Assembly (NCBI GenBank): GCA_024137785.1
Contig: JAHRHZ010000062.1
Location: 37,109,434-37,173,433 of the forward strand
Direction: 5' to 3'
DNA: 64,000 bases
From: Ginglymostoma cirratum
Taxonomy: Eukaryota
The notes beneath the pieces were generated by a model. It did not search any database. It had not been told where the DNA came from and worked only from the letters and a program-made list of their open reading frames with translations. Position 1 is the stretch's first letter. Each line of letters begins with the position of its first letter. This document shows, piece by piece, positions 16,501 through 19,500 of this stretch. The position numbers were made by a program, and so were the translations under genes.

Positions 16501-19500
16501 AACCCGGGTCCCTGGCACTGTTAGGTGCCAGTGCTAACCACTGAGCCACCGTGCCGCCCTTCAGCATCTAGCTGAACTCCTTCCTCTTGTTCAACACTCA
16601 ATTTACTGAAACAACATTTCCCAAACTTAGTTAGAACCTCCGGTTACAGCTACACGTTAAAAATGTCACTGGAATTGTTATCGTCAAATAAGTTGAATAA
16701 ATTGTTTTTTCTCATGCTCAGGTCCAGGGAGTGAAAATTACCAGCTAGGAAAGGGAAAAATCTGAAGTGGATGAATTTGTAGGACTATTGGTTGGAAGTC
16801 AAGTCGAGACACTAAATTTGGACAGGTCTTAGAAGCAATAAAAGGCACAACACACACAAATGAGTGAGTTTGGAGTTCTGAGGAAGGGTCACTGGACTCA
16901 AAAACATTAACTCGGATCTCTCTCTCTAGATGCTGCCAAACCTGCTGAGCTTTTCCAGCAACTTCTGGTTTTGATTTCCAGCTTCTGCAGTTTATTTTAG
17001 AAAAAAAAAAGAAAAAAAGAAAAACACCCAAATGGTCACCTTCTGCGCCGCAAGATTCTATGGCCCACAAAAGAAATGGACCGTCTCACTTTCCAGGGCT
17101 TACTGAAAAGCATTCATCAATTACAATTTAGCTTACCTATTTTATATTGAAATACAGTACGAACAGATCAAGTTGGGGGGAGGGGGGTAAAGAAAAACAA
17201 AAGTCAGATGAAACAAGCTTTTATGCAAGTCAGGGTAACATTAAAAATAGAGGGTTTGTTTAAATTTCACACCCATCACCCAGAATATGAAGACTCAGAA
17301 CACCCAGGGAATTTTGCAACACTTGGAGTCGCCATGAATCTCAGACTTCATCTTAAGCCAATACAATACTTCAAATGCTGTATGATAAGGCCACATTGTA
17401 TTAGACATTGAATTGGGAGGCCAAATGCTTAGAAAAAAGAAAGAGGAGATTGTTTAAGAGAAAGGACACAGTCAAAAAAACACAAACTCCTTACCCAAGG
17501 GCAAGGTACACGAAACTCACGTCACTCATATCACTCCTGTCACAGGAATCATTATTCAGCTTTGAACTGATGCAATGAGCATTAAGCATGAGCAGATACT
17601 CAAATCAAAGTGAATGGGAATATTCAATGCTCAGCTGTTTTTACAGAAGCAAGAGCAAAACAGCAAAATTAATTACAATTATGGAAATAAAAATCAAGTT
17701 GTTTAAGATGGTACTTTTAGCAAAGTCCAGAAAATATAGAAAAGTAGAGGCTAACGGGAGGGAAAAACCAAGGGCAATGGAGTCTCTATTCAAAAAAAAA
17801 GGTAGTGTTAACTTGTCTATTAGGAGACAAAACACATCCATGAAATGCTCAGGCCAATTTAGCACTGCCTTAGCATACCTGCCACCTCAGATAAAGTTAA
17901 TGTTGGGGAAAACAAAACTATATTGGACATCTCCTGATTTTGCTCAAAATAAATTAAAAAAGAAAAATGGTTTATGTGGGATAAAAGCATAGTACCATGC
18001 AACACATAATATATTATTCTTTGTAAGGGCTACTTATATAACACAATCCAAGGCTACTGTATCTAATTGGTGTGAATGTTGAGTTTAATTAGTCTTGGGG
18101 ACAATGCAACCGAAAATCACGAAACAGTTCACTATGCCACCCAGGATTGGTCATTTTTAAAAACAGGCAAGAGAGATCACAAATTGTTAAGCATGAAACA
18201 AAACAAAACTAAGACTATGGCATACTTTATTTCCCTAAAATGGGAATAGCTGTCTCTCTAATGCATATAGTTCATCAGCTGAAGTTTACTTGCATGTCTG
18301 AAAACAGGATTTGAAATTAAAGCTCCTTCTTCAACATGTCACTTGTATCTGTAGGACAGGAACTTTGCACAGAACTGCAGTGCTTCACAATGGATCACAA
18401 CCACTGACCATCACATAAGATTAACAAATCGACAAAAGTATTAAGAATTCAAAAACCCAAAATATTTTATTTGAAAGGGGAAGGACAGAGCCAAAACAAA
18501 AAAAAAAGAGATGACTATGCATGTAAATCCAGTGGCTGCCCGGAGAGGAACTCTAATGTCATACTTGACCAGTGTTAAAAAGAAGTGCAAAGAGACAGAA
18601 ACTTACTGTATATTGAGCTGCAATCGGCTGAGTATCACACAATGAAAATAATAGAAAGACATGACAGCAGTCTGAGGAAGGGGCGTGGGTGCATTTTCCA
18701 CTTTCAAGAATACACAGGGATGGAGATTAAAACAGAGTTACAATTCTGGTGTGGGTGTGATGCGGGTGGAGGTACTTGTGTACACTAGTCTGGGTTCAAG
18801 AATCTGTGCACAATGAAGGCCTTAGGGGTAAAACCATCCTCTAGTCATCACGGTATTGTGGATTAAGAAAAAAACTCCCTCAGATTGCTAGAAACAATTT
18901 AGCAAGTGAGTTCAGTGGTAACTGGAATGAAAAAGAGTTCAGCCAATCTGCAAAACCCAGAATGTCTGAATTGAATGGTCAACTGTTAACATTTTATCAT
19001 CAACTATTGGTCAGGAATCATACAGACATGACTAATCAAATCACAAACAAAAACAAAGTTGCTGGAAAAGCTCAGCAGGTCTGGCAGCATCTGTGGAGGA
19101 GAAAACAGAGTTAACGTTTCGGGTCTGGTGACCCTTCTTCAGAACTGAGGAACTCAGTTCTTTTGGTTTTTACTAATCAAATCACATTTGTCAACTCAAA
19201 AAAAAAAAGGCCTGGTTAAATTGGGTCCTTTTCAAAGCAAAAATTAAATTCCATTTGAGAGAGCAAGTGCGGTGTCTGCAACGCAAGGGATCCTTTTCAA
19301 GTTGACCCTGCAGCAATGAAGGGTGAATAACCAAGAGGAACCAGCTCATTCTTCCTCATCTGGGAAGATAATAATTTGAGGTATTCTAATTGAAGAATTA
19401 ATGAATTGGGGAAACTTTGCCTATGGACTGGCTGTGACAAATACTTTATCCGAAAAAGGAGTCATTAAAAATTATTGGCCAACTCTGTCTTCCCCAACAG

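Follow-up and report, generated by a model that had tools for sequence, protein, structure and literature searches.

A 64,000-nt stretch of the genome of Ginglymostoma cirratum (assembly GCA_024137785.1, contig JAHRHZ010000062.1, positions 37,109,434 to 37,173,433 of the forward strand), here termed the window, includes the cathepsin D gene (ctsd) and, in the fourth intron of this gene, a 126-bp insertion that bears a minimal hammerhead ribozyme motif. By every sequence feature tested, the insertion is a fragment of the pseudo-long terminal repeat (pLTR) of a Penelope-like element (PLE). The ctsd gene lies on the minus strand, where nine exons running from 43113 to 13370 encode 398 codons plus a stop, open throughout, with two DTG(S/T)S motifs. 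The product is an aspartic protease, and among PDB chains exon 5 has cathepsin D as its best match (E 4.6e-27, versus 1.9e-17 for cathepsin E). This nine-exon model bears out the first-pass annotation in placing the motif in intron 4 (19525-16193) in sense orientation, and the distance from the exon 4 donor to residue C3 of the hammerhead (19142), given there as about 380 nt, measures 383 nt. The further claim that the motif enters every ctsd pre-mRNA is supported for pre-mRNAs of the sequenced allele, in which the motif is sense and intronic. The features of the intron that bear on the insertion, including the target-site duplication (TSD) that flanks it, are as follows.

19526..19644, minus strand: ctsd exon 4, from the exon chain.
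16193..19525, minus strand: the 3333-nt intron 4 of ctsd, which contains the insertion, from an exon chain that yields the open 398-codon frame.
19031..19045, unstranded: left copy of the TSD, an exact match to 19172-19186.
19046..19149, minus strand: long tail-less arm of a PLE pLTR fragment, sense with ctsd, identical to 50414-50516 at 97/103 bases and aligned with 11 relatives.
19091..19114, minus strand: acceptor-like site within the insert, in which a branch-point-like UUAAC precedes a pyrimidine tract and a CAG ending at 19091, then ATG.
19109..19146, minus strand: minimal type I hammerhead, from a descriptor scan and folding.
19141..19161, unstranded: 9-bp junction hairpin, in the minimum free energy and centroid folds.
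19155..19171, plus strand: short inverted arm, the final 16-17 nt of the family 3' tail.
19172..19186, unstranded: right copy of the TSD, an exact match to 19031-19045.

The perfect 15-bp TSD first described around the insert stands: the window contains ACTAATCAAATCACA exactly twice (19031-19045 and 19172-19186), and the pair is one of two exact 15-mer direct repeats spaced 20-400 bp. The other such repeat, at 49648-49770, lies in a sister pLTR, within its CT-rich upstream region, and resembles an internal repeat rather than a TSD. Within 18950-19260 the TSD is the sole direct repeat; the insert is thus a single unit, and it is a non-autonomous fragment with no open reading frame (ORF) in its 126 bp. 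Read along the plus strand, the insertion consists of the first TSD copy, the long arm (antisense, from its internal end), the junction, the last 16-17 nt of the tail (sense) and the second TSD copy. The long arm terminates with TTTGTT, the internal end, beyond which the closest copy continues into a 34-nt tail, while the short arm is an inverted copy of the extreme terminus of the element, as claimed at first reading (19155-19170 equals 50535-50550 at 16/16 bases). The two arm ends of the insert coincide with the internal-end and tail-end borders of the family. An artefact is ruled out as the explanation of the insert by the perfect TSD and the family match.

A search of the window with three copies as queries returns 16 merged related segments, six of them in ctsd (four sense and two antisense). 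The alignment of 12 copies separates two subfamilies: (i) copies A to E (n=5), in which the predicted cleavage triplet is GUU and of which the insert is copy A, and (ii) a sister group that mostly has GUC where the site is kept. The insert is the best preserved of copies A to E and alone keeps both CpGs of the motif. The relatives of most concern are listed here.

50414..50550, plus strand: copy B, the closest relative (97/103 bases), outside ctsd, with the body followed by the full 34-nt tail.
9508..9721, unstranded: second insertion of the same design, with a tail-less arm, an inverted tailed arm, an 11-bp TSD and complementary arms of 55+24 nt.
40114..40285, unstranded: third insertion built in this way, within ctsd intron 1; its TSD is unclear, with a possible decayed TSD near GTGAAG on both sides.
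46930..48740, unstranded: decayed PLE with inverted arms of ~570 bp (98%) that enclose ORF remnants, the outer arm ends being two hammerhead-bearing pLTR copies of the sister subfamily.

The insert displays the signature of a PLE insertion, namely a 5'-truncated inverted arm, a tail end on one side only, a 9-bp palindrome at the junction and a 15-bp TSD. PLEs typically carry an inverted, 5'-truncated copy with a 30-40-bp tail at a single end (PMC8557442, PMC8969392), and those of rotifers have 8-10-bp TSDs, their inverted junctions carrying palindromes that are interpreted as self-priming (PMC3846280). Retro-insertion with a TSD, as first proposed for the locus, is thus supported; the PLE identity, and the match of the inverted terminus and palindrome to published PLE insertions, had been overlooked. 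A TSD search at copies B to E gave matches of 5-8 bp only, which are unconvincing.

The decayed PLE at 46930-48740 places related pLTRs beside protein-coding remnants. One of its ORF remnants matches GIY-YIG at E 0.0011, below the Pfam cut-off, and another has an ESM Atlas alignment-free feature score of 0.97 to clusters with PF26215, which we take to be a marker of PLE ORFs. Pfam assigns no family to the N-containing PLE-like ORFs (0 families in 4/4 frames). As the arms of this element lie beside N runs, a collapse of the assembly is possible. Besides reverse transcriptase (RT)-end and GIY-YIG remnants, this element includes the copy at 47022 on the minus strand, the strand of ctsd, whose minimal hammerhead is intact and has GUC.

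On the ctsd strand, the motif of the insert reads AGUU-CUGAAGA-A-GGGUC-ACCA-GACCC-GAA-ACGU-U-AACU, with a predicted cut after U 19113 (GUU). Cleavage at GUU is slower than at GUC. Stem I is formed by 19146-19143 with 19112-19109 (4 bp) and is followed by the core CUGAAGA (19142-19136), an extra A (19135), stem II (19134-19121, 5 bp), GAA (19120-19118), the palindrome ACGU (19117-19114) and U17 (19113). The motif is thus intact and reads as first described, including the cut after 19113. A relaxed descriptor of minimal hammerheads finds four matches in the window (19142-, 47022-, 50420+ and 57953+, with an intact palindrome in 3/4) versus none in each of 20 shuffled windows. The marks of PLE minimal hammerheads in the insert include: (i) the core CUGANGA, GAAA, UH and stems I and II, (ii) the extra base between positions 9 and 10.1 (A19135), (iii) the pair G19134-C19121 as G10.1-C11.1, and (iv) a palindromic 15.2-16.2 without loop 3. 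Searched at the gathering score, Rfam detects no hammerhead in the window (0 matches), and none of the 12 matches returned at E values up to 10 belongs to a hammerhead family.

Stem III is impossible in the monomer because C15.2 and G16.2 are adjacent; thus, the motif requires a partner molecule. The same adjacency, which leaves stem III without a loop, rules out a domesticated, monomer-competent intronic ribozyme. Intronic hammerheads of the RECK type instead fold alone, with stem III formed in the monomer. Among the four descriptor matches in the window, none is a second intact motif within the ctsd span on the gene strand; the nearest on that strand (47022-) lies 3.9 kb upstream of the ctsd start codon. 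The weakness of minimal motifs as monomers, which the first-pass annotation offered as the reason for tolerance of the insertion, is backed by the Schistosoma mansoni motif, for which monomer cleavage is reported as undetectable and dimer cleavage as low (PMC4209133). That account had overlooked that stem III cannot form at all in the monomer and that the gene holds no partner on its strand. PLE hammerhead variants that cleave as dimers are described (Lunse et al., summarised in PMC6765202).

The junction of the two arms forms a perfectly paired hairpin of -10.4 kcal/mol at 19141-19161. The hairpin had been recorded correctly; its overlap with the ribozyme, and the predicted lock on stem I and C3/U4, had not. 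On the ctsd strand the 3' arm of the hairpin is CUCAGUUCU, which contains the 5' strand of stem I together with C3 and U4. The predicted probability that C3 is unpaired is 0.00 in the full insert and in the contexts 19000-19200 and 18900-19300 (201 and 401 nt). When folding is modelled on a growing transcript, the hairpin forms before stem II and is retained at 7/7 lengths. The energy required to reach the ready fold (stems I and II) is 9.15 kcal/mol with the native inverted arm, compared to 3.4 (median) and 8.5 (maximum) when this 22-nt arm is shuffled (n=200), such that 0/200 shuffles are as high as the native arm. A double dimer is predicted to cost +29.6 kcal/mol with the hairpin versus +12.6 without it. 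The hairpin is thus predicted to lock stem I and C3/U4, and, with ~9 kcal/mol separating it from the ready fold, self-cleavage of the ctsd insert is predicted to be off.

Much of the hairpin is accounted for by the family itself. Seven of the nine pairs derive from CAGTTCT, a sequence present in the family both at the 5' edge of the ribozyme and in the tail; thus, the hairpin is less surprising than at first sight, and its interpretation as a separate functional element is rejected. The remaining two pairs have CT in place of the CG of the tail, consistent with a short fold-back copy.

The insert is very probably a short, 5'-truncated piece of a PLE terminal repeat, in which the hammerhead is a neutral passenger, predicted to be folded off and likely without effect on ctsd. 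In the proposed course of events, the inverted arm would be transcribed first and would pair with the 5' strand of stem I and with C3/U4 before the remainder of the ribozyme exists. Stem III would depend on a second molecule, and the gene holds no second intact motif. Given an early hairpin, a stem III formed in trans and no partner in the gene, intron 4 would be expected to be spliced out uncut. Related systems are consistent with this outcome. The motif of an anole PLE is reported not to cleave without the PLE protein, with RNA-seq reads that neither begin nor end at the site (PMC11167929). Splicing is said, in a second-hand account, to stay efficient when a hammerhead cleaves within an intron in vivo, a fast hepatitis delta virus (HDV) ribozyme alone causing failure (PMC2995048).

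Several results weigh against this reading. Tertiary interactions and proteins do not enter the folding model, and it also disfavours the canonical GUC copy at 47022 (+13.1 kcal/mol) and folds copy B off by another route, without any junction hairpin; the absolute energies are thus not predictive, and the differences alone are informative. When the insert supplies the substrate half and a bare motif the enzyme half, the half-dimer costs +4.9 kcal/mol, close to the +2.2 for two bare motifs, and the model suggests that the hairpin obstructs the enzyme half only and leaves the substrate half free. The GUU triplet is common to 5/5 subfamily copies and is counted among the active hammerhead cleavage triplets (PMC3138052); thus, U17 is no indication of decay. 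Across the 12 window copies, 81.6% of stem cells are paired, with 46/500 shuffles as high, and the covariation score is no higher than that of the shuffles. The link to an autonomous PLE is modest: the ORF of the GUU subfamily itself was not found in the window, the tie of pLTR to adjoining ORF runs through the sister subfamily, and the protein matches are sub-threshold or alignment-free. Finally, hammerhead retrozymes are reported as depleted in Xenopus introns, yet 42-44% of the copies are intronic (10.64898/2026.07.22.740005).

The free substrate half leads to an alternative in which cleavage is conditional. Here, the ctsd pre-mRNA would be cut at 19113 by the enzyme half of a family transcript, or after refolding by a PLE protein, and ctsd output would be lowered where PLEs are active. 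The core is intact with both CpGs kept, the hairpin persists in the half-dimer formed with a bare partner, at the +4.9 kcal/mol given above, and the related family is abundant (16 segments in 64 kb). The hammerhead of the anole PLE is protein-assisted (PMC11167929), and CPEB3 output is tuned by an intronic ribozyme (PMC10274809). However, only eight intermolecular pairs would hold the complex together, and a full-length copy B as partner raises the cost to +13.3 kcal/mol. Missing from the insert are most of the tail and any ORF region, of which the anole protein needed the first 172 nt (PMC11167929); dimers are slow even in cis (PMC4209133); and hammerhead cutting within an intron did not prevent splicing (PMC2995048). 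Conditional cleavage is considered very unlikely.

An effect on splicing is also very unlikely. The acceptor-like CAG (19091), paired with the weak donor 19027, may define a 63-nt in-frame pseudo-exon of low inclusion. Of 1773 intronic AGs in ctsd, 15 pass a simple filter on pyrimidine content, YAG and absence of upstream AG, and 19091 is among them; six of the 15 also have a branch motif, and the branch-point-like motif of the insert lies 20 nt upstream. A YAG is found at this position in 5/5 subfamily copies. The exon 4/5 junction is of phase 0, and the 63 nt form a stop-free run of 21 codons. Downstream of the CAG, three GT sites at distances of up to 400 nt match 6/9 of the donor consensus, 19027 being the nearest. 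By contrast, 14 other decoy AGs in ctsd introns satisfy the same filter, which is crude; purines are absent from +3/+4 of the donor (CAT|GTCTGT); and a local stem is predicted to pair the CAG. The exon 4/5 junction (19526/16192) coincides with the start of the human cathepsin D heavy chain in PDB, the alignment of chain 1lya_B beginning at residue 2 of ctsd exon 5; thus, a 21-codon pseudo-exon would land in the chain-processing loop.

Twin priming is a mechanism by which long interspersed nuclear elements (LINEs) generate inversions. The insert might be a unit resembling a short interspersed nuclear element (SINE) that was moved by a LINE and inverted by twin priming rather than by a PLE event. 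The TSD is long and perfect, 5/5 subfamily copies start 4-7 nt before C3 as expected of a discrete unit, and LINE-like RT fragments are seen by eye in the window. The insert nevertheless has no poly(A) or repeat tail, its long arm stops at the internal end and its short arm at the tail end, in common with the two other inverted insertions, and its sequence aligns with pLTRs that adjoin GIY-YIG remnants, which together leave a LINE origin with a very slim chance. It is extremely improbable that PLE half-ribozymes in sense introns act as latent targets, such that transcripts or ribonucleoproteins (RNPs) of active PLEs would cleave ctsd pre-mRNA at 19113 in trans, a position two bases from the branch-point-like A carried by the insert; if they did, cathepsin D output would be tied to retroelement activity.

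Under the PLE origin preferred here, the route of integration may be reconstructed from the arms. A PLE RT-endonuclease would make staggered nicks 15 nt apart in ctsd intron 4. One nick would prime a cDNA at the internal end (the 103-nt arm), and the other would prime a cDNA at the tail end (the 17-nt arm). The long cDNA would then fold back, copy a few of its own bases and join the short cDNA via the shared CAGTTCT, which would generate the palindrome. The protein of the anole PLE Poseidon_Ac is described as nicking and extending both strands, AT-rich DNA being preferred, and its reverse transcription as having two start sites that flank the tail (PMC11167929); the arm ends of the insert fit these two sites. 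Within a PLE origin, the joining of two cDNAs head to head, each primed from a staggered nick, is put a little above an even chance; that this two-primer route is drawn from a single type of locus counts against it.

The closest known counterparts of the motif are the metazoan PLE minimal type I hammerheads (Cervera and de la Pena 2014, PMC4209133), which share with the insert the full core, the extra base between 9 and 10.1, G10.1-C11.1, a short stem I, the palindromic 15.2-16.2 without loop 3 and an occurrence as dispersed single copies from truncated elements. The insert differs from these motifs in that its subfamily has GUU, while the sister subfamily of the window has GUC, and in that a hairpin made by the insertion itself overlaps stem I and the core. 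In its integration, the insert resembles the PLE insertions with an inverted pLTR described in PMC3846280 and PMC8557442, and Poseidon_Ac with its two RT start sites at the tail (PMC11167929); the features in common are head-to-head arms, a one-sided tail, a TSD, a junction palindrome and arm ends at the tail borders. By contrast, the ctsd insert is tiny, with arms of 103 nt and 17 nt, lacks an ORF, and has only the last half of the tail on its tailed arm.

A sense self-cleaving motif in a host intron is shared with the amniote intronic hammerheads (RECK etc., PMC6155905, PMC6765202) and the CPEB3 ribozyme (PMC10274809). These are conserved across many species, whereas the ctsd insert is one copy of a repeat and has its TSD intact, no monomeric stem III and a predicted off fold. 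The animal non-LTR retrozymes (PMC7229834, 10.64898/2026.07.22.740005) share the short, non-coding, hammerhead-bearing design and a kinship to PLE pLTRs. Unlike the retrozymes, for which at least two tandem units, each with a complete hammerhead, are required (10.64898/2026.07.22.740005), the insert is not tandem, has a minimal rather than a canonical motif and ends away from the cleavage site. A tandem retrozyme array is ruled out, the insert being a single unit.

The insert is likely an ordinary, harmless insertion of a known PLE type. As most likely read, it has little importance of its own: minimal motifs number ~4,000 in the coelacanth and ~9,000 in Xenopus tropicalis, most of those of S. 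mansoni are dispersed single copies (PMC4209133), and several relatives of the insert lie in ctsd introns. Its value is instead that of a clean and very short record of PLE integration, with arms that end at both borders of the tail, and of a test case for silencing by an inversion junction that lets a ribozyme persist in a sense intron. If host cleavage in trans or with the assistance of a protein were true, it would be the first in vivo role of PLE minimal hammerheads on a host gene. No published account of this locus was found in a literature search, with most subscription journals outside its scope.

The first-pass annotation termed the insertion recent. This holds relative to its neighbours, as the TSD and the hairpin are perfect and the insert is the only one of copies A to E with both CpGs; the insert is thus young compared to the neighbouring copies. 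In absolute terms the word is too strong, since a perfect pair of 15-mers is arithmetically compatible with up to ~18% divergence at the 5% level.

Further observations concern the family. All five GUU copies (at 19146, 50416, 7006, 57949 and 16874) start at the 5' edge of stem I, with 4-7 nt preceding C3, while the sister copies reach far upstream of stem I. A fixed 5' boundary of the GUU subfamily is suggested, which may reflect an RT stop, a splice site or a discrete short unit. In copy B (50420-50470), the core CUGAGGA is predicted to pair with the downstream UCCUUCAG, an alternative off fold that appears built into the family. After the acceptor-like CAG, the subfamily has a frame that begins at the ATG and stays open over 15 codons, as far as the internal end (19091-19046 and 50460-50550); in copy B the same frame continues through the tail, as expected if the pLTR contains the start of the PLE ORF (compare PMC3846280). 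At 50287-50332, a 13-bp direct repeat flanks a 20-bp piece of the family internal end, possibly a tiny insertion from the same internal site. A 37-letter pattern of the family has no match in metagenome contigs, the single metagenome match to a 21-letter pattern (n=1) is attributed to chance, the rest of the element being absent, and a pattern scan of viral contigs gave 0 matches. By eye in the list of ORFs, PLE-like fragments lie near 7518-8288 and LINE-like RT fragments near 34613-35230 and 63197-63949.

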